Assembly (NCBI GenBank): GCA_964291315.2 | Contig: OZ219752.1 | Coordinates: forward strand, 224,001-288,000 | Reading direction: 5' to 3' | Source of the DNA: Candidatus Poribacteria bacterium | Lineage (GTDB): Bacteria; Poribacteria; WGA-4E; WGA-3G | DNA: 64,000 nucleotides | Shown here: one piece after another, positions 7,569 through 42,589 of the stretch | Numbering within the stretch: position 1 is the stretch's first letter | Layout: each line of letters opens with the position of its first letter | Notes under the pieces: model-generated | The model's database searches: none | What the model saw: only the letters and a program-made list of their open reading frames with translations | What the model was told of the DNA's origin: nothing | Position numbers and translations under genes: made by a program

Positions 7569-7684
7569 CTTTTAATGCAGAATTCTTGTAGCTATTAGCG
7601 TGTGGGCGTAGCAAGCTTAGATGTCCACCGGTTAGGCAGCAGGGAGCAGACTCGCTTTTTAACTATTCAGATAATTAACGTCTT

Positions 7685-7954
7685 GACTATGCTAGGTGGG
7701 GAGGTAGCGGTGCCCTGTATCTGCAATCCGCTAAAGCAGGACTGAATCCCTAGCATGCGGCCTGTTTCTGTGGGGCCTGTCCTATGCACGTGGTGTTGAT
7801 AGTTGGGTCTTGAGCAACGAGTGCTTGTTGAACCCCGTCAGGTCCGGAAGGAAGCAGCGGTAGGTAGGTTACTCGTGTGACGCAAGGGTGCCTGACTTGA
7901 GCTAACGACGTAGGCAACGCTCGGAGAAGCTTGTCAACTCTGGGTGCATAGTCA
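7685..7954 (+). ncRNA. ffs: Signal recognition particle RNA, large (Alu-domain, Bacillus scRNA-type)
   Basis: Helix 8 motif TCAGGTCCGGAAGGAAGCAGC; 5' Alu-like GGGGAGGTAGCGGTGCCCTG; terminal pairing GACTATGC/GCATAGTC; located upstream of dnaX. Confidence 0.92.
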
Positions 7955-8026
7955 ACTTTGAGGCGTGTTAATCGGACTGGCAACCCCCAATTCCGGAGTT
8001 CATGTCGTTTAAGGAAGGATTGTGCG

Positions 8027-9796
8027 ATGTCTTACGAGGTTCTCGCCCAAAAATGGCGTCCCCAAAAGTTCAGTGATGTTGTCGGGCAAGAGCACGTTAC
8101 GACTACCCTGAAGAATCAGATTTTGTCGGAGCGCGTTGGACATGCATACCTCTTCTGGGGGCCACGGGGCACTGGTAAGACGACTGTTGCCCGGATTTTT
8201 GCTAAGGCTGTCAACTGTCCTAACCGCCTTCAAGAAACCCAGTTTGATGAGACCCTAACCCCGGAACCCTGCAACGAATGTGGATTTTGTGATGAGATTT
8301 CGCACGGTAGGTCCCTGGATGTGTTTGAGATGGATGCTGCTTCCAACCGTGGCATCGATACTATTCGGGATCTCCGCGAAAACGTTAAGCTCTCTCCGGC
8401 TGCCTGTCGCTATAAAATCTATATCATAGATGAAGCACACATGCTGTCTTCGGAAGCTTTTAACGCCTTACTTAAAACGCTTGAAGAGCCGCCCCCACAT
8501 GTTATCTTCATCATGGCGACAACTGAGCATGCCAAGATTCCTAAAACCATCAGTTCTCGCTGCCAAGATTTCGATTTCCGACATCTAGAAGACGAAAAGA
8601 TAATAGAACGTTTGCAGCTGATTGTCAAAGACGAAGAGGTTTCGGTAGATTTGGACGTGCTCACACTCATCACTCGTCAGTCTGAAGGATGCCTCCGAGA
8701 CGCGGAGAACCTGTTAGAGCGCCTCATTGCCTCAGCAGGAAAAGATTTGACGATCGAGGCTGTTGAGCAAACTATTGGACTCGGCTCGTCTTCTCTGCTG
8801 CGTGACCTTGCTGTAGCAATTATAAAAAGGCATCTTGCGAAGGGATTGAAAACCCTAAATGACTTGACAAAGCAAGGAACTGATCTGTCGAAATGTCTCG
8901 ATCAACTCATCAGCTATTTCCGAGATCTCCGACTCTTGGCAATCGACAGCAACCTAAGCGAACTTATTCAGAGTCCTAAGTCAGATCTCCCTGAACTTAA
9001 ACAACAGGCTGAACAGATGTCGGTGAGGCGCCTATCTCGGATTGTTAGAATCTTGATGTATACGAGTCATGAGATCAGACAGTACGGATACCCGCAACTC
9101 CAATTAGAAACTGCATTCATTCAACTTAATTCACTTGAAGAAGGCATTTACCTCGGAAAGATTGTCGATAAATTATCGGCATTAGAGCGGAAATTTGATA
9201 CGGTAGGGGTTCCAACAACAGCGGAGATACCGCCGCGACAGGTTGCCGTACCTTCATCTGAAAACCCGAAAAATATACAAACTGCATTCCGGGGGCCTCC
9301 TTTAACCACATCCGGCAACGGTGCAGCGAGGGCATATGATGGCAAGCAACCTGCAACGCCGGCTTCACCCGCCTCGGGCGTATCGATTGCTTCACCGACC
9401 TCGCCGCCTATATGTTCACTATCAGAATTACCTGAATTTTGGGAGGAGATAAAATCGGGACTCCCTACAAGGATTTGTCATGGTCTACTTGCAGACTCCG
9501 TTCTATCTGTCAACGCTACCGATGTGGTTGAAATCGGGTGTTTGCCTTCATCTTTCCCTGTAATTATGGATCGCGACAAAGCAGCTATAATTGAGGCGCT
9601 GACGGAGGCTGTCGGTCAGCCTGTAAAGATTCGTCTAGTTGTTTTAGAAACTGTTCCTGGAGCCGCAGGAGCTAGGAACATGCCCGAACAGAAGAATCGG
9701 AAAACGCCACATATGCGGAAAGTAGAGGCTGAGGACGATCCACAACTTAAAACAGCGCTGACGCTCTTTAGGGCCACAGTTATAGGGACCGAATAA
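8027..9796 (+). CDS. dnaX: DNA polymerase III subunit gamma/tau
   Basis: MSYEVLAQKWRP, GPRGTGKTT, DAASNRG, IIDEAHML, NALLKTLEEPP, SRCQ; ATG after AAGGAAGG. Confidence 0.97.
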   Translation: MSYEVLAQKWRPQKFSDVVGQEHVTTTLKNQILSERVGHAYLFWGPRGTGKTTVARIFAKAVNCPNRLQETQFDETLTPEPCNECGFCDEISHGRSLDVFEMDAASNRGIDTIRDLRENVKLSPAACRYKIYIIDEAHMLSSEAFNALLKTLEEPPPHVIFIMATTEHAKIPKTISSRCQDFDFRHLEDEKIIERLQLIVKDEEVSVDLDVLTLITRQSEGCLRDAENLLERLIASAGKDLTIEAVEQTIGLGSSSLLRDLAVAIIKRHLAKGLKTLNDLTKQGTDLSKCLDQLISYFRDLRLLAIDSNLSELIQSPKSDLPELKQQAEQMSVRRLSRIVRILMYTSHEIRQYGYPQLQLETAFIQLNSLEEGIYLGKIVDKLSALERKFDTVGVPTTAEIPPRQVAVPSSENPKNIQTAFRGPPLTTSGNGAARAYDGKQPATPASPASGVSIASPTSPPICSLSELPEFWEEIKSGLPTRICHGLLADSVLSVNATDVVEIGCLPSSFPVIMDRDKAAIIEALTEAVGQPVKIRLVVLETVPGAAGARNMPEQKNRKTPHMRKVEAEDDPQLKTALTLFRATVIGTE

Positions 9797-9915
9797 CCGC
9801 GTCCGAATATGAAAGACATATTCTTATAAGGAAATTTCTATTGTACTAAGCATTTTTGTAAGGCGTCAACCGCTTATACGTATACGATATAAAATTGTTT
9901 GGAGGCAGAAAAACT

Positions 9916-10224
9916 ATGAAAATGAATGACCTGATGAAGCAGGCGCAACAGATGCAAAAGCGGATGCTTGAGATCCGTGAGGAACTTGCAAATAGAACAG
10001 TTGAAGCAACTGTCGGAGGCGGGATGGTAACAGCTATCGTCAATGGACAGCAGGAAATTGTTTCGCTCCATATTACCCCTGAAGTCGTTGATCCGGATGA
10101 TACTGAAATGCTTGAAGACTTGGTTGTCGCTGCTATTAATGAAGCACTGCAACAATCGCAAGAATTGATGTCCTCGGAAATGAATAAATTAACCGGTGGA
10201 CTTAAGATTCCAGGACTCCCCTAA
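9916..10224 (+). CDS. ybaB: YbaB/EbfC nucleoid-associated protein
   Basis: LMKQAQQMQ, GGGMVT, EMLEDLVVAAINEA; between dnaX and recR. Confidence 0.95.
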   Translation: MKMNDLMKQAQQMQKRMLEIREELANRTVEATVGGGMVTAIVNGQQEIVSLHITPEVVDPDDTEMLEDLVVAAINEALQQSQELMSSEMNKLTGGLKIPGLP

Positions 10225-10282
10225 CCGGAATTGGGGCAAGGTTTAGATAACGCCTGCCTCTCGGGCTGCCCATCGTAAAAAA

Positions 10283-10897
10283 ATGCAAGAATACCCGAAA
10301 CCGCTAGCGAGACTTATTTCTGAGCTTCAGAAACTGCCAACAATTGGGCAAAAGACAGCGCAGCGCTTAGCATTTTTTATGCTAAAATTACCTGATAGCG
10401 AGACTGCCCAAATCGCAGATGCGATTGCACAAGTAAAGAATCTCTTAGGTTACTGCGGTATTTGTAGTGCTATTACAGATGCCAATCCGTGCTATATCTG
10501 TACAAACCCACGCCGCGACCAACAGATCGTCTGCGTTGTTGAAGAGTCTGATGACCTATGGGCAATTGAGCGAACGAATGGCTATAAGGGTCTTTACCAT
10601 GTCCTCGGAGGCGTTTTATCCCCATTAGATGGAACTGGGCCCGATGAACTCGGCATTAATAAACTTTTTCAACGGATTCGGCAACCTGCTGTAGCAACAG
10701 AGCCTATTCAGGAGGTAATACTCGCCACAAATTGGACCACTGAAGGCCAAGCGACGGCTCTCTACCTTACGCAGCACTTGGAAATGTTTGATGTCGCTGT
10801 TACTCGAATTGCTTACGGTATTCCGGTTGGTGGGGATCTAGAGTATATTGACGAGGTAACCCTTGCAAAGGCATTAGAGGGTAGGCGAAGAGCTTAA
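10283..10897 (+). CDS. recR: Recombination mediator RecR
   Basis: LPTIGQKTAQRLAF, C4 zinc finger, YHVLGGVLSPLDG, Toprim domain. Confidence 0.97.
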   Translation: MQEYPKPLARLISELQKLPTIGQKTAQRLAFFMLKLPDSETAQIADAIAQVKNLLGYCGICSAITDANPCYICTNPRRDQQIVCVVEESDDLWAIERTNGYKGLYHVLGGVLSPLDGTGPDELGINKLFQRIRQPAVATEPIQEVILATNWTTEGQATALYLTQHLEMFDVAVTRIAYGIPVGGDLEYIDEVTLAKALEGRRRA

Positions 10898-11890
10898 ATG
10901 AAAAAACAAACGTTCGTACTCATAGCACTCTTTATAGTGGTTAGTGGCCAGCTGTCAGCTGTTGGTAAAGAGGACGTTCTATCAGGAACCCGTGCAGGTG
11001 CTGCCACAAATGAGTTGCCGATAACTGGTAACCGACAACCAACAGCCGTCTTTGATGCACAACGTGCTTTTGCAATATTAGAAAAACAGTGTGAATTCGG
11101 ACCGCGCCCGCCCGGTTCGCCAGCACACCTTCAAACGCAGCAGTATTTGTTCACTGAGCTAGAAAAATATGCGAATAACGTAACATTCCAGCCGCATCAG
11201 CACAAAACACAGGGGGGCACACTTCAACTAAATAATATCTTAGCGGAATTTAATCCTGCTGCCTCAACCGTTCTGGGGAATGCCTCGAGTGCGGATACGC
11301 TCCTACTCGCTGCGCATTGGGATACGCGCCCCGTTGCTGACCGAGATCCAAAGCCCGAGAATCGAGATAAACCGATTCTCGGGGCCAATGATGGTGCTTC
11401 AGGGGTCGCTGTCCTTCTTGAGATTGCTAGGGTGTTAAAGCAACGACCACCGCCCCGTCGAGTGATTATCGTTCTTTTTGATGGGGAGGACTACGGTCTA
11501 TCGACGGATGACATGTTTATTGGTTCTCGTTACTTTGCCCAAAATCTGGGAAACTGGCGACCAGACTACGGCATACTGCTAGACATGGTTGGGGATAAAG
11601 ATTTGAGCATTCCAATAGAGGGTTACTCTTGGAGTGCAAATCGCGAATTCACCCAGGCAATCTGGGATCGGGCAGCAGCGCTCGCGTTGTCTCCGTTCCA
11701 ACAACGCTTAGGGGCGGCGATCTTGGACGATCATGTTCCACTCATCAAAGTAGGTATTCCAATGGTTAATATTATTGATTTCACGTATCCATATTGGCAT
11801 ACGGTTGAAGACACAGTTGACAAGTGTAGTCCAAAAAGCCTTGAAGTTGTCGGTACCCTGGTCATGAGTATTATTTATGATGGACTTTAA
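10898..11890 (+). CDS. M28 family peptidase (glutaminyl cyclase-like), secreted
   Basis: AHWDTRP, GANDGASGVAVLLE, FDGEDYG, LLDMVG, DDH, YWHTVEDT. Confidence 0.88.
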   Translation: MKKQTFVLIALFIVVSGQLSAVGKEDVLSGTRAGAATNELPITGNRQPTAVFDAQRAFAILEKQCEFGPRPPGSPAHLQTQQYLFTELEKYANNVTFQPHQHKTQGGTLQLNNILAEFNPAASTVLGNASSADTLLLAAHWDTRPVADRDPKPENRDKPILGANDGASGVAVLLEIARVLKQRPPPRRVIIVLFDGEDYGLSTDDMFIGSRYFAQNLGNWRPDYGILLDMVGDKDLSIPIEGYSWSANREFTQAIWDRAAALALSPFQQRLGAAILDDHVPLIKVGIPMVNIIDFTYPYWHTVEDTVDKCSPKSLEVVGTLVMSIIYDGL

Positions 11891-11928
11891 TCAAATTTTG
11901 TGGTCTTCTTTGCTAACAGGGAAGAGAT

Positions 11929-13833
11929 ATGAATACGTATCAGAAACATTACGATGTTATTGTAGTTGGAGCAGGACACGCGGGGTGTGAGGCTGGGCTT
12001 GCCGCTGCGCGGATGGGATGTGAAACACTCATTCTCACTATCAATCTTGATACAATCGCAAAAATGTCTTGTAACCCGGCTATCGGCGGTCTTGCGAAGG
12101 GACATCTTGTTAAAGAAATTGATGCCCTCGGGGGCGAGATGGCGAAGAACATTGATAAAACAGGCATTCAATTCCGGCGTCTAAATACCAAAAAGGGGCC
12201 AGCGGTTAGGTCGAGTCGGGCGCAAGCGGATAAGAAGGCGTACCAAGATGAAATGAAACGCGTCTTAGAGGCGCAAGAACGACTTGACATCAAACAGGTA
12301 CTCGTGGAAGAGCTCCTCGTTGAAAACGGCAAATGCGTTGGAATTCTCAGTCAGACGCGGACTGCCTATTTGGGTGAAGCTGTAATTCTTACGACCGGAA
12401 CTTTCTTGCAAGGCATAATTCATATCGGTGATGTTTCGTATAAGGCGGGTAGAGCGGGGGAATCCTCTGCGGAGAAGCTGTCGGAGAGTTTTTTGAACCT
12501 CGGCTTTGAAATTGGTAGACTCAAAACAGGTACTCCCCCTCGCGTCAATGCGCACACAATTGACTTCAGCCAGATGGAAATTCAACCTGGTGATGAAGAA
12601 CCACTCCCTTTCTCCTTCACAACCGAACGGATTACGCAGCCCCAACTGCCCTGTTATCTGACTTACACGAATGAAAAAACCCATGCCATTATCCGTGAAA
12701 ATCTTCATCGGTCTGCAATGTACAGTGGTCGTATTGTTGGCATCGGCCCCCGGTATTGTCCGTCGATTGAGGACAAAATTGTTCGCTTCGCCGAAAAAAC
12801 TGGGCATCAAGTTTTCGTCGAACCGGAGGGTAGAGCTACAGAGGAAGTCTACCTAAACGGAATTTCTGCAAGTTTACCTGAAGATGTGCAGGTGAAGATG
12901 GTGCACAGTATCAAGGGGCTAGAGAGCGCTGAAATCATGCGCTTCGGATACGCTGTTGAATACGATTTTGCTCCGGCGACCCAGCTGCGGTCAACCCTTG
13001 AGACGAAGCTCGTCTCTGGTCTCTATTTCGCGGGACAACTCAATGGCACGACCGGCTATGAGGAAGCCGCTGCGCAGGGGCTTATGGCAGGGATCAATGC
13101 AGCTTTAAAGGTGAAAGGTGAAAAACCGCTTGTTCTTGACAGGGCACAAGCCTACATAGCCGTGCTGTTGGACGACCTTGTCACCTTGGACATTCGTGAA
13201 CCTTACCGGATGTTCACATCTCGTGCTGAATATAGACTCACATTGCGAGAGGACAATGCTGATCTAAGGCTTACTGAAGTAGGGAGACAGATTGGACTCG
13301 TCGAAGACAATAGATATCGCCAATTTCAGAAGAAATCCGAAAATATCCAAACAGAATTGAGGCGGTTGCAGAAGACCGTTCTCAGACCGGGACACCCACC
13401 GTTTACTAGAGATGGGGAGGGCGTGCCTATTGAGATCTGGACGAATATAGCTAAAACGGGTGAATTAAAACAACCTACCTCCTTGGCAGAACTGCTGAGA
13501 CGTCCTGAGCTTCATTATGGAGAAATAAGCCAGCTTGCACCATCACCGGAAATTCTGTCAGAAGTCGTAAAGGAGCAAGTAGAGATTCAAATTAAATACG
13601 ACGGCTACATTCAACGACAGCAGCGACAAATTCACCAATTCAAAAAGATGGAGAACTTCCTAATACCCGAGTCATTTGACTACATGGATGTTCCTGGGTT
13701 AAAGGCGGAAGCCCGTGAGAAACTCATGCAGATCAGGCCTACTTCTATCGGACAAGCCTCGCGCCTGCCTGGGGTTTCGCCTGCTGATGTCTCAATATTA
13801 ACAGTTGTTCTTCATAGATACAACGCAACATAA
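11929..13833 (+). CDS. mnmG: tRNA uridine-5-carboxymethylaminomethyl(34) synthesis enzyme
   Basis: [52 protein letters not shown]. Confidence 0.98.
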
Positions 13834-37914: not shown

Positions 37915-38604
37915 CTATGAAAATAATTCTGTCAATACAGATTCTGTTCTGACTGCCTGCACCGTCCCGTTCGCGAATCGCATCGCCGACAAATGTGCAT
38001 ACAGAAAGTCCAGATCTTCAACTGTATCTATATCATACCATGGAGGTAGTAAGCCAACGCTTGCTTTTGCCGAACGTATGCGTGTCATTGTCTGTTGAAA
38101 AACGTCTGCTGTACTCCAAGGAATGTCCTCAAATACAAGCGGCACAGTCGTTGTTACATTCGCTGCAGAAAATCCTATGAGGTAATAGCCTCCATCTGTG
38201 CTCGGTCCAATGACGACATCGCGCCAGTCAAGTTGTGTAAGTGCTTGTGAAATATATGAAATAGGTAGCGTCGGACTGTCAGACCCGACGAGTAAAATTT
38301 TCGTATATCTGTGTTCAGCTGCCCACTGTGTCGCTGAAGCGAGTCTGTTTCCAAGCCCCGTTCCTGTCTGCGCTATATAGATAGGACCTTCTCCGATTAA
38401 CACTCGTAAATCCGATTCTGCTTCTGGTGGGGTATATGCAACGATTAAATCCACATCAGAGAGTTTCTTGATGATTTCACACCAATCTGTGAGGAATGCC
38501 GTGTACAATGTCGCCGCTTGCTCGGGTGACAGTGTTGGAACAAGCCGCGTCTTAACCTGATTCGGCACCGGGTTTTTAGCAAAAACAGTCACGCACATCT
38601 TCAC
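37915..38604 (-). CDS. DUF2064/TIGR04282 family glycosyltransferase
   Basis: FAKNPVPNQVKTRL, Q.G.GLG.RL, GSDSPTL, GPSTDGGYYLIG, IPWST, DIDTVEDL; start overlaps the upstream stop (GTGA). Confidence 0.88.
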   Translation of the reverse strand: MKMCVTVFAKNPVPNQVKTRLVPTLSPEQAATLYTAFLTDWCEIIKKLSDVDLIVAYTPPEAESDLRVLIGEGPIYIAQTGTGLGNRLASATQWAAEHRYTKILLVGSDSPTLPISYISQALTQLDWRDVVIGPSTDGGYYLIGFSAANVTTTVPLVFEDIPWSTADVFQQTMTRIRSAKASVGLLPPWYDIDTVEDLDFLYAHLSAMRFANGTVQAVRTESVLTELFS

Positions 38605-39332
38605 CGATTAAGTTCCTTGTTTGGCATAAAGGGTAGAGAGAGTTGATGCGGAGTCGGTTCGTCGGTTGAAAGAAGTTGGATTTCATCTGTTATAATCTTT
38701 AAATAGCGGTCTCGGTCTTGAAATATTCGTTCATCAACCCATCCATTTTTGGACAATGAAACAAATAGAGCAGCTGCGCGCGCTTGGCAATTGATTCCGC
38801 GCTTTGGGTTGAAAACGATGTCTGAAAAGCCCTGATATGCTTCGAGTTTTTTCACCAGGTCTCTCTCGTTCTGGTGGAGTGCCTTCATATACAACCAGTC
38901 ATAGAAGGCTGTTTTAGGTTCAGTCGGGAATTCTTCGCCACAGAGATCGAAAGCGATGAGTTCTCCTGAATTCCGTAGTCGCTCGTCGGTTTTTGCTGCT
39001 CGACTGGACACGGAGTAAAGCTCATGATAGGGGCCTCCATTTTTAAACACCTTGCTTCCTTGATAGGCACACTCTACGGTTGTCTTCTGGCCCTCCGGTA
39101 TTTCTAGTTGCAGATTAAAAGCACTCAGTGAAACACCCAATTCTAATCTGGATTTACCTGAAATTTCCAAAATAGGGCTGATACTGTATTTTTTGGCGGC
39201 TTCATGTAAGGAATCAATGGATTTTTGCAGTTGAGATTTTGCGAAGCCTGGATACCATTTAAACGTTAAGTCTATTTCATCAACATACGGGAATCCATTG
39301 AGGTTGGACGTGAAAATAGGGCGTTTTGCCAT
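38601..39332 (-). CDS. DarT-associated NADAR-like antitoxin (DUF6977-like)
   Basis: MAKRPIF, W.PGFA.SQ, LEISGKS, LSAFNL, VECAYQGSKVF..GGPY, PKTAFYDWLY, FNP...NCQARAAA. Confidence 0.8.
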   Translation of the reverse strand: MAKRPIFTSNLNGFPYVDEIDLTFKWYPGFAKSQLQKSIDSLHEAAKKYSISPILEISGKSRLELGVSLSAFNLQLEIPEGQKTTVECAYQGSKVFKNGGPYHELYSVSSRAAKTDERLRNSGELIAFDLCGEEFPTEPKTAFYDWLYMKALHQNERDLVKKLEAYQGFSDIVFNPKRGINCQARAAALFVSLSKNGWVDERIFQDRDRYLKIITDEIQLLSTDEPTPHQLSLPFMPNKELNR

Positions 39333-39456
39333 TGTGCTCTGCTCCTAAAACAGTGTGGTACTGATATCTACAGGGAACTTGATCTTACTCATTAACAACG
39401 CACACAATAGAATAAAAAGGTGAGCAGTTTAATGACTTACTCAGGTCGGTTGAGAG

Positions 39457-39642
39457 TTATAGGTTTTTATCTTGGACATATAGGAGTAATCCAGTGTAAA
39501 AACCAAGTGCTGCGAGTTGTAGTCCTATAGCGATCGCGATTATTTGTGATCCTGCTTCTTGAATGAGAAAGAGGACTAGGAGTGATGTTGCCGCTAATAG
39601 CATGACGTTCGCTATTGCCATTAGATGTGTTGCTTTCAACAT
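39457..39642 (-). CDS. Small two-TM hypothetical membrane protein
   Basis: RBS AAGGAG; two hydrophobic helices. Confidence 0.6.
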   Translation of the reverse strand: MLKATHLMAIANVMLLAATSLLVLFLIQEAGSQIIAIAIGLQLAALGFYTGLLLYVQDKNL

Positions 39643-39767
39643 GATTGTCTCCTTAGTTGCGTGCTGTTAGGATAAGGCAACACACCCCACCCCCCAACAC
39701 AATAGATTATTACCTGTATGTCTGCCGTGAGAGGTGCAGGTCGCCCATCACTGCAGACATGAATTCG

Positions 39768-40010
39768 CTATGGCTCCGCGGATCTGTGTAGACGGCTTGT
39801 TTCCCCAGGCTTACCTCCTAGGTTCCCGATGAAGATATAGGAGAGTCCGTACTCACTAGCCCTCGTCCTGAGACGGGGCATATTCAGCTCAGGTCTATAC
39901 CTTGAGTAAGGTCTAGACCTCACGTCTACGAGGTATTGTACCCCTTTGTTCTTGAGGGTTGTTAGCATATCCTCAGGGTTACTGTTCCCATAACCGATTG
40001 TGTAAATCAT
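39768..40010 (-). pseudogene. Truncated DUF488 family protein
   Basis: IYTIGYG, LVDVRSRPYSRY.P, Y......LGGKP; ends before the C-terminal C..E...CHR motif; RBS AAGGAG. Confidence 0.75.
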
Positions 40011-40067
40011 CTAAGGTTCTCCTTGTTAGAGGGCAGGGCATACACCCCACCCCCTCATTTATTACAA

Positions 40068-41456
40068 TTACAACCTTGGCTCATCTTGCCACGTTTCATC
40101 TATCGGATGATAGATGTCATCAGTTTCCCAGAATCCGAGGAGGTTATAGAGATCGCATAACCCGAAATCCTCCCTCAGCTCATGGTTCGCTGAGGCAGCC
40201 ATCCAAAGGGCTGCTGACCTTGCTTGGCAAGCCACCCCTCCTTTCGTGAACTTGAAGAAGAGGTCTGTGAATCCTTCGGCTGGAGAGAGCATTACATCAT
40301 TCTCTATCAGAGCTTTGATGTATATCCAGTCAAAGAATAATGTTTTAGGCCAGGTTGGGATCTCCTGGCCTTTGTAGTTGAACCCTATAAGTTTCCCGGA
40401 GCTTCTTAGACGCTTATCTGTCTTTGCGTTTCTAGGACTCATTTTATAGAGTTCGTGATAAGGTCCCCCATTCTTGAACACCTTACTGCCCTGGTATAGG
40501 CATTCGATGGGTATCCCTTTCAGTTTTAGGTTGAAGGCACTGAGTGCCCTCCATCTTTGTAACGACGACGCTGTGCTAATCTCATAAATAGGGGTGGGCA
40601 GCCCCATCTCGCTCGCAGCAGCGTGTATTGCCCTGACGTTCTCACTATTAGTGCTCCGCCACGCGAATCGGACGGGCACTGTTTTTACGTATCCACACTC
40701 GTAATCAGGGATAAAAACGGGAAGCACGGCTGGAACTACGTCACTAGTTGGGGCGTATGAAAGAGGTATACCATTGGCATCAAGATTTTCACTCTTCCAT
40801 ATACTATAATCAGATCTGGAATCGAAATATTGCCGGGAAATTTTATAATTGGAACTAGTTCTGATGGGCATCAATCTTTCTTGAGCAGCAGCATCCCAAT
40901 AGTGGATTTCCTTAATATATTGTACTGGTATTGGATTAAAAACCAGTACCTCTGCTTGCGGATGTGTTGGATAATTTTGGGGTATTGACAAATCTTGATG
41001 CCTTATACCATAGAAATCTTCAAACAGATCTTTCAATGCTTCGGGTCTTTTTCTATTTTCCAATGGAACGTTGTTAACGCGCCGGCTTGCAGCATTTTCC
41101 TTGCAAAAGGCACACTCAAATTCCCACAACACTTTTGCATCAAGCAAGAGAACAACCCATTGGGCATATTCGACTCCTTCCCAATCTTTTCTAAGCTTAT
41201 AAAACATTTTGTAATTTGGAAAACTAATGCTTAGACAGACCGCGTCCGTATTGTTATCGGCTCGATCGGGATCATTGAACAAAAAATTTCTTCTATCTGC
41301 TTCCAAAGCACTCCGCGACAGCAAGCCATCTTGTAAGATACTCGGTAAGTTTTCAATTCGAGTAAAGTGGCAAAGCGTTGTTATCTCTTTTTCTTCACAA
41401 ATTTGTTGTATCTGCCGTGCTCTCCAATTTTGTTCATAGAAATTTAACATCGGCAT
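40068..41456 (-). CDS. DarT-family ssDNA ADP-ribosyltransferase (DUF4433) fused to a C-terminal NADAR-like domain
   Basis: LCHFTRIENLPSIL.DGLLSR, CLSISFPNYKMFY, PQAEVLV; then EISTAS, LSAFNL, ECLYQGSKVFKNGGPY, FFDWIY, CQARSAA. Confidence 0.8.
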   Translation of the reverse strand: MPMLNFYEQNWRARQIQQICEEKEITTLCHFTRIENLPSILQDGLLSRSALEADRRNFLFNDPDRADNNTDAVCLSISFPNYKMFYKLRKDWEGVEYAQWVVLLLDAKVLWEFECAFCKENAASRRVNNVPLENRKRPEALKDLFEDFYGIRHQDLSIPQNYPTHPQAEVLVFNPIPVQYIKEIHYWDAAAQERLMPIRTSSNYKISRQYFDSRSDYSIWKSENLDANGIPLSYAPTSDVVPAVLPVFIPDYECGYVKTVPVRFAWRSTNSENVRAIHAAASEMGLPTPIYEISTASSLQRWRALSAFNLKLKGIPIECLYQGSKVFKNGGPYHELYKMSPRNAKTDKRLRSSGKLIGFNYKGQEIPTWPKTLFFDWIYIKALIENDVMLSPAEGFTDLFFKFTKGGVACQARSAALWMAASANHELREDFGLCDLYNLLGFWETDDIYHPIDETWQDEPRL

Positions 41457-41560
41457 GCTTCCTTATCTAAAATTGAGTTTGGAAAAGTATACTGCATTTC
41501 AAAAATAAATCAACACCTTTTTATGTCAAAGAATCAGTGGATAACTGATATTACTCGCTG

Positions 41561-42589
41561 CTACCGATCGTCAACCCTCTCACGAACCGCGGGGTTGTCC
41601 GGTTCTACCGGTTCCGGACGCTGATCTAGCCACCACGCGAAGACAACGACAAGACACGCAAGCGCAATTCCACTCAGGGCCATCGGGATACCTGTTGATT
41701 TTCCATCACTTGCATCAATCTGGTATTTTGCAGCAACTGCTGATGCTATCGCAGCTACGGCCATCACGAGGTTCACGAGCCATGGAACTTGACAAAGCAC
41801 CGCAATCAGCGAAACCACAGCGGTAGTCAAACTCAATTGTGCAAGGGGGTGATAAGGTGTTGCGTTAATTTTCTCATCATCGGAGCCTTCTGTGTCTCTA
41901 TGCGAAACTGGAACCGGTGCCCCTTCTTGATATGTCAGCTCAATGAGTCTAATGAATTCTGGTAGTAGCTTTTCCTCTTGAATCCACTCAAAAAGGTCAG
42001 GATATTCGTGCCGGAGAAGGATTACAAATTCTTGACGTTGGGCACTAAAATCTGTAAATTCTTCCCAATCGCTTTCTGGGACCGTGACGTATGGTTCAGG
42101 ACCGACACGAAGTTGATAGCCGTGTTCAGCAATATAGACGACGCTCCCAACCCCTTTGCGTTCAGCGATCCGTAATTCTGTCAAGTCGTCGGGATCCACC
42201 TGTTGACTCCTGTCTTCCTCGACAACAGCCATATCGCGTTGTTTAAGTGCCTGCGCTGTCGCTTCAGATCGCATTGCCATTTCGTTGTCTGTAACAGCTA
42301 CACCGATACGACTTACCAATTCCATTGCCGTTACTTCATGCTCAGGTGCCACAAGAAGCGCGGTTTCACGTTTCTCTTTTAATTCGATCGGTCTGCACCG
42401 GATCTGCTGTGCACTCAGAGTGACTTGAATCAGCTTCACTTCCCATTCATCATGGGTCCGGTGAATCTCTACCCAATCGCGAGTATTGCCGACACCTTCC
42501 CCAAATAACTGCGATACTTGCCTCAACTGGCTTTGACTCACGTGTGTATCTTGTGCTGTGCTGATTGTTTTTTTTCTTTTTTCATTCAT
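41561..42589 (-). CDS. Membrane protein with DUF2007-like N-terminus and DUF4190-like C-terminus
   Basis: WVEIHRTHDEWEVKLIQ..L; C-terminal TM helices with A..QI..S.GK..G..MALSGI. Confidence 0.55.
   Translation of the reverse strand: MNEKRKKTISTAQDTHVSQSQLRQVSQLFGEGVGNTRDWVEIHRTHDEWEVKLIQVTLSAQQIRCRPIELKEKRETALLVAPEHEVTAMELVSRIGVAVTDNEMAMRSEATAQALKQRDMAVVEEDRSQQVDPDDLTELRIAERKGVGSVVYIAEHGYQLRVGPEPYVTVPESDWEEFTDFSAQRQEFVILLRHEYPDLFEWIQEEKLLPEFIRLIELTYQEGAPVPVSHRDTEGSDDEKINATPYHPLAQLSLTTAVVSLIAVLCQVPWLVNLVMAVAAIASAVAAKYQIDASDGKSTGIPMALSGIALACLVVVFAWWLDQRPEPVEPDNPAVRERVDDR

Follow-up and report, generated by a model that had tools for sequence, protein, structure and literature searches.

We analysed a window of 64,000 nucleotides of Candidatus Poribacteria DNA (contig OZ219752.1, positions 224,001 to 288,000), in which an earlier note, written from the letters alone, had pointed to a DarT toxin fused to a NADAR-like eraser. 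Positions below are those of the window unless a related locus is named. One minus-strand open reading frame (ORF) of 462 amino acids (aa) encodes a DarT1 ADP-ribosyltransferase domain followed by a diverged NADAR domain, here called NADAR', and a second, free NADAR gene lies downstream on the same strand (Table 1). Domain calls by profile, a check that the note had proposed, placed DarT and NADAR inside the one ORF with Pfam and matched the free gene to PF22397 over its full length, as claimed. All the motifs that had been quoted were found as well (H30-F31-T32, Q167-A168-E169, LSAFNL, YQGSKVFKNGGPYHELY and CQAR.AA). Between the two NADARs lie the truncated DUF488 gene that the note had described and a small ORF; the latter is present, and the membrane nature ascribed to it corresponds to two hydrophobic stretches judged by eye. 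Judged from its sequence, the locus is a real, recurring and undescribed variant of the known DarTG1-type toxin-antitoxin defence system.

Table 1. Features of the DarT1-NADAR' locus and its two anchor genes, in window coordinates.
Feature	Position	Strand	Size or basis
DarT1::NADAR' fusion ORF	40068-41456	(-)	462 aa
DarT1 ADP-ribosyltransferase domain	40830-41372	(-)	Residues 29-209, Pfam PF14487
Linker	40734-40811	(-)	Residues 216-241, comparison of DarT tails
NADAR', diverged DarT1-type NADAR domain	40170-40721	(-)	Residues 246-429, Pfam PF22397
G-rich hairpin copy 1	40028-40055	(-)	Between fusion stop and DUF488 ribosome-binding site
Truncated DUF488 ORF	39768-40010	(-)	80 aa, N-terminal half, Pfam PF04343
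G-rich hairpin copy 2	39660-39701	(-)	5' of the small ORF's ribosome-binding site
Small hydrophobic ORF	39457-39642	(-)	61 aa, no family
darT-end/Shine-Dalgarno junction TTTTAGGAGCAGAGCACA	39333-39350	(-)	Directly upstream of free NADAR
Free DarT1-associated NADAR	38601-39332	(-)	243 aa, PF22397 end to end
Upstream anchor, DUF4190-like membrane protein	41561-42589	(-)	Pfam match below cut-off
Downstream anchor, DUF2064	37915-38604	(-)	Pfam and synteny
Two overlapping sigma-70-like promoter matches	41486-41529	(-)	104-bp gap 5' of the fusion ORF

The toxin half matched the Pfam DarT family with an E value of 1.2e-21 and 77.8 bits, against a cut-off of 22.5. DarT1 of Escherichia coli C7 (8baq) was the only solved DarT that it matched by sequence (1.7e-37, phmmer). 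In Foldseek, the AlphaFold2 (AF2) model of the fusion aligned with 8baq at a TM score of 0.88 and a root mean square deviation of 2.2 Å, as opposed to TM scores of 0.47-0.61 for DarT2 chains. When the 8baq alignment was read by eye, H17, F18, T19, R52 and D54 of the C7 enzyme corresponded to H30, F31, T32, R65 and D67 of the window protein, and M71, F72, N104, Q150 and E152 to M84, F85, N121, Q167 and E169. R52, D54, M71, N104 and E152, plus H17, F18 and F72, are essential in C7 DarT1, and N104 is the guanine-coordinating Asn (PMC11543638). The essential residues of the window protein were invariant across 13 fusion proteins. Because this half matches only 8baq, resembles it in fold (TM 0.88 versus 0.47-0.61) and has the guanine-coordinating N121, we assign it to DarT1 rather than DarT2, with a predicted intact set of catalytic residues. 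By homology, it would ADP-ribosylate the N2 of guanine in single-stranded DNA. The NCBIfam DarT equivalog scored 25.5 bits on the fusion, below its cut-off of 150, and the PADLOC DarT model matched weakly (4.2e-10, best stretch residues 23-54). PADLOC did not call a DarTG system: neither NADAR matched any of its models, and the version used holds no model that matches NADAR antitoxins.

The two NADAR copies differ markedly in their agreement with the family. PF22397 matched the free NADAR over profile positions 1-211 of 212 (E 2.4e-83, 279.2 bits) and NADAR' over positions 4-200 (E 1.2e-48, 165.8 bits). Aligned with each other over 184 aa, the copies show 48% identity (E 3e-50), a similarity that, with the shared motifs, lies far beyond chance. 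The solved NADAR 8bat, from Geobacter lovleyi, matched the free copy at 5e-56 and NADAR' at 4e-24, and the modelled fold of NADAR' aligned with it at a TM score of 0.83 (Foldseek, AF2 model). Four NADAR residues have been functionally tested in C7, namely E88, K95, K115 and D171 (PMC11543638). Their equivalents are E87, K94, K114 and D171 in the free NADAR and E318, K325, K345 and D398 in NADAR'; the Glu, the K95-type Lys and the Asp count as catalytic, and K115 as the rescue Lys.

To quantify the divergence, we defined family-conserved positions as the 66 alignment columns with a conservation of 90% or more across 75 free NADARs; the middle ORF of one related locus, L007, was left out of this set since it belongs to the fused-type clade. 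The free NADAR retains 65 of the 66 positions and NADAR' 43, with 23 changed. The median identity of the free NADAR to Poribacteria NADARs was 73.6%. NADAR' searched alone against 5.8 billion proteins reached a best identity of 44-48%, with nothing above 48%, and its end branch on the NADAR tree measured 1.18 substitutions per site versus a median of 0.066. The changes include R245L, K272E, K296A, G302W, N402K, P404T, S407G and N409A, together with a 5-residue deletion in the PGFAK loop, and the N-terminal extension has lost an Arg and two conserved Lys. A net loss of positive charge from this extension was considered and rejected, its charge of +1 lying within the family range (median +2). 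The NADAR' core is unusually basic (net +8, rank 91 of 93 NADAR domains). Since the free NADAR combines 65 of the 66 conserved positions with the usual darT/NADAR junction, as opposed to 43 of 66 in NADAR', it is probably the original, canonical and syntenic antitoxin, and the fused copy the aberrant one. The label of "backup antitoxin" given to the free gene in the earlier note thus probably reverses the roles. NADAR' would be an aberrant guanine-ADP-ribose hydrolase paralogue in which the fold and the four tested residues are kept and a third of the conserved positions are changed.

The single-chain AF2 model of the fusion had a mean predicted local distance difference test score (pLDDT) of 78.3 and a predicted TM score (pTM) of 0.50. 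Both domains were folded confidently and the linker was disordered, with a pLDDT below 50 at residues 222-240; the same held for residues 403-406 of NADAR', in the loop after the catalytic Asp. The linker keeps the proximal part of the C-terminal DarT tail typical of its clade (DYSIWKSENLDANGIPLSY), whereas the acidic ...DDDIPF stretch at the distal end is missing, together with the stop codon, the spacer and the NADAR start. A reading by eye gave no sign that NADAR' is started internally: another residue stands where the ancestral Met was, and the only candidate is a GTG at V244 without a Shine-Dalgarno sequence (SD).

The ends of related genes suggest how the joint arose. Separate DarTs of the same clade end in DYE.W..NFN..GIPLSY...acidic...DDDIPF and a stop codon, followed after 11-12 bp by the ATG of NADAR. 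In the window, the DarT tail is kept through GIPLSY plus 9 residues and then continues as NADAR' from about its third residue. The free NADAR is preceded by TTTTAGGAGC..ATGGCAAAACG, which is the canonical darT-end/SD junction; in TTTTAGGAGCAGAGCACA-ATG, the last Phe codon and stop of a darT are followed by the SD spacer. This junction matches that of listed relatives whose DarT has the acidic tail (e.g., L002 and L003; L numbers denote related loci and P numbers proteins), whereas the tail-less L016, L041 and L037 do not have it. The apparent distal end of darT (GATATC...TTTTAG) sits upstream of the free NADAR and is missing at the fusion joint. About 1.4 kb, comprising NADAR', the DUF488 half, the small ORF and two hairpins, separates the darT tail from the free NADAR. 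Most parsimoniously, one insertion or recombination of ~1.4 kb into the 3' tail of darT would have produced this arrangement; a possible, more complex route would begin with a tandem duplication and require both a deletion and another insertion afterwards.

The insertion of a ~1.3-kb foreign segment, as first proposed, agrees with these data in its first part. The junction remnant fits an insertion or recombination of ~1.4 kb, as does the spacer: its 735 bp of DNA, the DUF488 piece, the small ORF and the G-rich motif had no counterpart in 78 related loci. The word "foreign" is unproven. The G+C content at third codon positions was 0.35 in the DarT part, 0.51 in NADAR', 0.55 in the DUF488 piece and 0.42 in the free NADAR, and it does not decide on a foreign origin because the NADAR-minus-DarT difference spanned -0.05 to 0.18 in 26 related pairs. 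The DUF488 ORF is counted as truncated because only profile positions 3-64 of 121 were matched; it also matched PADLOC PDC-M45B (9e-15). For the 61-aa ORF, Pfam gave no family, and PADLOC and NCBIfam gave nothing decisive. The two G-rich hairpins each stand just 5' of the ribosome-binding site of an inserted ORF. Their shared 13-mer GGGGGTGGGGTGT occurs twice in the 64 kb versus 0.02 expected, and the predicted folding energies were -23.1 kcal/mol (z -2.9) for copy 1 and -21.5 kcal/mol (z -2.0) for copy 2.

The acidic C-terminal ...DDDIPF tail is conserved among separate DarTs. By pattern, 14 of 65 separate DarT ORFs carry it, mostly in Poribacteria (e.g., L003 6961-8952 and L011 8330-10741; near-misses occur in L012, L014 and L055), and it is missing or cut in every fused form. 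A possible role of the tail is in NADAR docking or as a degron, for which the covalent link would substitute in the fused forms.

We evaluated how common DarT-NADAR fusions are. A search of 5.8 billion proteins with the window's fusion gave 532 matches; among the 120 listed, at least 13 proteins carried DarT and NADAR by Pfam, the window's own included. A search for longer forms with the free NADAR listed 63 long proteins, 8 of which had both domains and 2 of which were new, for a total of 15 clusters at 90% identity among the matches listed. With the fusion alignment, 78 genome loci were fetched, and all their ORFs were scanned with our own DarT and NADAR profiles. Fifty-nine contained separate darT/NADAR pairs and 5 contained fused ORFs (L005, L006, L013, L015 and L025, the last with an in-frame stop inside NADAR'), with L007 showing the same order as three ORFs. 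The remaining loci had NADAR only (7), partial DarT only (4) or were otherwise broken or cut (2). On trees of 93 NADARs and 81 DarTs, built from domain matches of at least 170 profile positions with broken copies left out, the "fused" label changed 8 and 9 times, respectively; supported branches forced at least 6 changes on the NADAR tree and at least 4 on the DarT tree. The trees thus point to several independent origins of DarT-NADAR fusions, with at least 4-6 forced. The search for the same fusion elsewhere that the earlier note had recommended found comparable fusions in independent assemblies, and with 15 protein clusters, 5 fused loci in 78 and several origins, the fusion, which the note had called unusual, is not unique.

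In a plasmid collection, 43 records matched. Thirteen of the 15 listed had two features annotated under the match; of the other two, H7 had three hypothetical proteins and H10 no annotated feature. No record in the phage collection matched the fusion protein. The DarT-NADAR fusion was undescribed in the literature searched, which did not cover supplements or subscription papers.

A second lineage parallels the window. In L006, L007 and L025 (proteins P0004, P0009 and P0013), DarT-NADAR' is followed after ~160 bp by a canonical free NADAR. NADAR' of this type retains 44 of the 66 conserved positions and has lost the K115-equivalent Lys (K to N), which the window keeps. Pairwise ratios of nonsynonymous to synonymous substitution rates were 0.24-0.37 for NADAR', 0.29-0.35 for DarT and 0.23-0.27 for the free NADAR; this NADAR' is under purifying selection. 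As in the window, a loop deletion lies at the same place and an R-to-L change at the NADAR N terminus. Unlike the window, the L006 type occupies another genomic site with no shared anchors, belongs to another DarT clade (SH-aLRT 95 and 96) and has no inserted genes in its 160-bp gap. The DarT of L007 (9971-10618 of that locus) reads H-Y-T for H-F-T and has Lys in place of the guanine-coordinating Asn (QKKAAS vs QENAAS); this toxin may be decaying.

Fused erasers without a nearby second NADAR (the L013 type, the Bacillota type, P0005 and P0032) keep 59-66 of the 66 positions. In the L005 type, the fused NADAR keeps 64 of 66, and the adjacent free NADAR is a near-identical recent copy. This distribution suggests that a tethered eraser is freed from part of the family constraint only beside a diffusible eraser.

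The window's locus lies at a conserved site of a Poribacteria chromosome, of the sponge-symbiont type, with a glycosyltransferase (GT) and the DUF4190-like gene on one side of the darT/NADAR module and DUF2064, SDR and other genes on the opposite side. Twenty-four of the 78 loci carried the module at the same site with shared anchor genes. The proteins flanking the module in the window were 70-93% identical to those of Candidatus Poribacteria metagenome-assembled genomes (MAGs), and orthologues of the DUF4190-like anchor, 56-77% identical, adjoin DarT/NADAR in other Poribacteria. The content of the site varies, with a DUF6785/DUF6784 gene, DUF6602 and remnants of insertion sequences (IS)/TnpB or of DDE transposases in some loci. 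Because the anchors are shared and the content is variable, the site is best read as a long-resident, diversifying chromosomal locus, with no obvious mobile island. In seven relatives (L016, L017, L020, L021, L037, L041 and L046), a gene of ~650-690 aa stands between NADAR and DUF2064; all four of those scanned had Pfam DUF6785 and DUF6784. This gene is absent in the window, because the stop of the free NADAR overlaps the start of DUF2064 by 4 bp (38601-38604).

The closest relatives of the window's DarT half (~60% identity) are DarT1 domains preceded by long WD40 beta-propellers (e.g., L001, L003, L005, L010, L011, L017, L020 and L046; P0007, P0008 and P0012). Other relatives carry ankyrin repeats, and P0110 carries sigma-70 domains. 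A NADAR encoded as its own gene comes next, in many cases at the Poribacteria site of the window. The WD40 and ankyrin repeats may be sensors or targeting modules; no description of DarT1 with WD40 or other repeat domains was found in the literature searched.

Several known systems resemble the locus in part. The chain 7omu (PDB), DarTG of Thermosipho africanus, holds DarT and a macrodomain and matches the Macro and DarT parts of the fusion protein P0003, as well as the DarT fold in the model of the window's protein. As in the window, writer and eraser of DNA ADP-ribosylation form one polypeptide, whereas the eraser of 7omu is a macrodomain (DarTG2, acting on thymine) and that of the window a NADAR. 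The 7omu structure was reportedly published by Schuller et al. in 2021. DarTG1 of E. coli C7 and G. lovleyi shares with the window the two families, the essential residues and the toxin-then-eraser order (PMC11543638). Its toxin and eraser are separate proteins, whereas the window has two NADARs, one of them joined to the toxin, and this NADAR' departs from the family consensus at 23 of 66 positions. DarT1-associated NADARs are mostly free-standing single domains in the same source, whose introduction, citing its reference 28, gives DarTG1 a role in phage defence.

Fused toxin-antitoxins of the CapRel type, like the window's protein, unite a toxin and an antitoxin domain in a single polypeptide, in which the antitoxin part could also act as a sensor; the folds are unrelated, and the window also keeps a free antitoxin. 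The concept of such fusions is mentioned in 10.1101/2023.12.14.571748. T4-like phages reportedly carry orphan NADAR-like anti-DarT1 factors (PMC11257639). These are reported to neutralise DarT1 without an adjacent DarT, and orphan NADARs occur at the Poribacteria site as well. The phage genes serve in counter-defence, whereas the window's protein had no match in the phage collection.

Taking the observed domain identities, residues, architecture, recurrence, synteny and divergence pattern together, we favour, with moderate confidence, a chromosomal DarTG1-type toxin-antitoxin and phage-defence locus in which DarT1 is tethered to NADAR' and a canonical NADAR is supplied free. The enzymatic activities, toxicity, division of labour and defence role that we infer for it, like the order of events outlined above, take the following form. 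Each DarT1 molecule would be made tethered 1:1 to an eraser-like domain by a disordered linker of ~25 residues. NADAR' would damp DarT1 in cis, acting as a hydrolase, as a binding partner or in both ways, and the free NADAR, from a same-strand transcript, would clear stray guanine-ADP-ribose from host DNA in trans.

A number of points weigh against this explanation. The inserted segment carries a broken DUF488 gene, and the window's fusion protein was found on one contig only among the matches listed, so that selection on it cannot be gauged; its open frame would be weak evidence if the insertion was recent. Elsewhere, this type of locus decays: the linker of L007 is interrupted by a TAA, and the NADAR' of L025 by a TAG. 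The association of a diverged NADAR' with a second NADAR amounts to two lineages, the independence of which is unproven for NADAR': the window and L006-type copies join on the best tree with a support of 17%, and long-branch attraction is possible. DarT is absent and a canonical NADAR stands alone at the conserved site in five loci (L037, L045, L053, L054 and L057), directly after the DUF4190-like gene (NADAR at ~9974-10840); these orphans are probably antitoxins left after toxin loss. The pTM of 0.50 implies that the model gives no confident arrangement of DarT relative to NADAR'. The remodelled loop after the catalytic Asp (N402K, P404T, S407G and N409A) may make NADAR' a poor hydrolase. Finally, the proposed scheme offers no release route for a covalently neutralised toxin.

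To another reading we assign a small share of the probability. In this reading NADAR' is no longer mainly an eraser but a cis-regulatory or sensor domain, as in CapRel, that holds DarT1 off until binding or cleavage by a phage factor makes it let go, and erasure is left to the free NADAR. The 23 changed positions, including those in the loop after the catalytic Asp, are consistent with such a role, and so is the loss from the N-terminal extension of conserved basic residues (R245L, K272E and K296A) that have been linked to a putative DNA groove (PMC11543638). In the L006 type, NADAR' evolves under purifying selection although the rescue-essential Lys is lost. Both lineages retain a canonical free NADAR, and the very long NADAR' branch fits an arms-race surface. 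However, the window copy retains E318, K325, D398 and K345, all four, the net charge of its extension is within the family range, the model shows no confident packing between the domains, and there is no known trigger.

Less probable again is a tolerated accident in a decaying locus, by which a fragment of another locus, with a 5'-truncated NADAR', the DUF488 half and the small ORF, landed in frame in the darT tail and left a chimera that is inert or self-neutralised, so that only the free NADAR, or nothing, matters. The truncated gene in the insert and the lack of a counterpart in relatives would be expected of such an event. The same can be said of the loss of DarT at the same site in five loci, the stop codons (L007 and L025) or breaks (L008 and L024) in other copies, the remnants of IS/TnpB and DDE transposases that related loci carry at the site, and the single contig that carries the protein among the matches listed. 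Yet the 462 codons preserve every tested catalytic residue of the two domains, and the same architecture is under purifying selection in another lineage. In addition, an intact DarT1 without neutralisation would kill its host, and neutralising the toxin is therefore the least that the arrangement has to do. An artefact of assembly or sequencing behind the single ORF, with separate true genes or a chimeric join, is highly improbable: some related long-read MAGs do show single in-frame stops, and errors could act either way, but intact synteny on both sides makes an assembly chimera unlikely, stop, spacer and start codon are all missing from the junction, which is more than a one-base difference, and comparable fusions exist in independent assemblies.

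With the favoured explanation of a tethered DarT1 beside a free canonical NADAR, what is new here is the conserved Poribacteria site, the contrast between a canonical free NADAR and a diverged NADAR', and the L006-type parallel. DarTG1 has been described as two separate enzymes; the fusions show that DarT1 can be kept, and perhaps work, while tied to its eraser. Sole fused erasers stay canonical, whereas those beside a free copy diverge under selection, which amounts to a natural experiment on the parts of NADAR that serve catalysis and those that serve antitoxin function. The K115 result had not settled this question (PMC11543638). The conserved site with its WD40-DarT1s suggests that a phylum of uncultured symbionts has a DNA-ADP-ribosylation system that is lineage-wide, inherited vertically and diversifying. 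A bolder proposal, which we regard as doubtful, is that DarT1 in Poribacteria has repeatedly been tethered to a fast-diverged NADAR' as a cis gate or phage sensor, with the free NADAR acting as a housekeeping DNA repair eraser. The tethered paralogue would have kept its catalytic residues while its N-terminal extension and the loop after the catalytic Asp were remodelled, and the logic of CapRel would here be realised with a toxin-antitoxin pair of two enzymes. If true, this would be the first three-part DNA-ADP-ribosylation system with a writer, a cis-eraser and a trans-eraser.

Upstream of the fusion ORF, the two sigma-70-like matches read TTGACA-16-TATTTT (10 of 12 positions) and TTGATT-16-TATACT (9 of 12). 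The number of such matches in the region was no higher than in shuffled sequences, and only their position is suggestive. A terminator scan of the region found none on the minus strand and gave no excess over shuffles, and an Rfam scan of 38400-41700 at E values up to 1 returned zero families.

Locus L005 contains two DarT systems in tandem (7664-13069 of that locus). The first consists of a WD40-DarT of 606 aa with a frameshifted tail (7664-9484) and a NADAR, and the second of a 748-aa ORF with DarT and NADAR. The two NADARs of the locus are near-identical to each other. The database form of the second system, P0003 (618 aa), starts with Macro, so that a single protein combines the writer with erasers of two different families. 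NADARs of the PF22397 type are fused to other domains as well: among P0241-P0297, we found fusions to HEPN_AbiU2 (e.g., P0242), Macro, the nucleoside 2-deoxyribosyltransferase PF05014, the DUF1156-type methylase PF06634, PF14280 and PF06908. Many proteins of 445-476 aa (e.g., P0246) combine NADAR with an unassigned C-terminal half.

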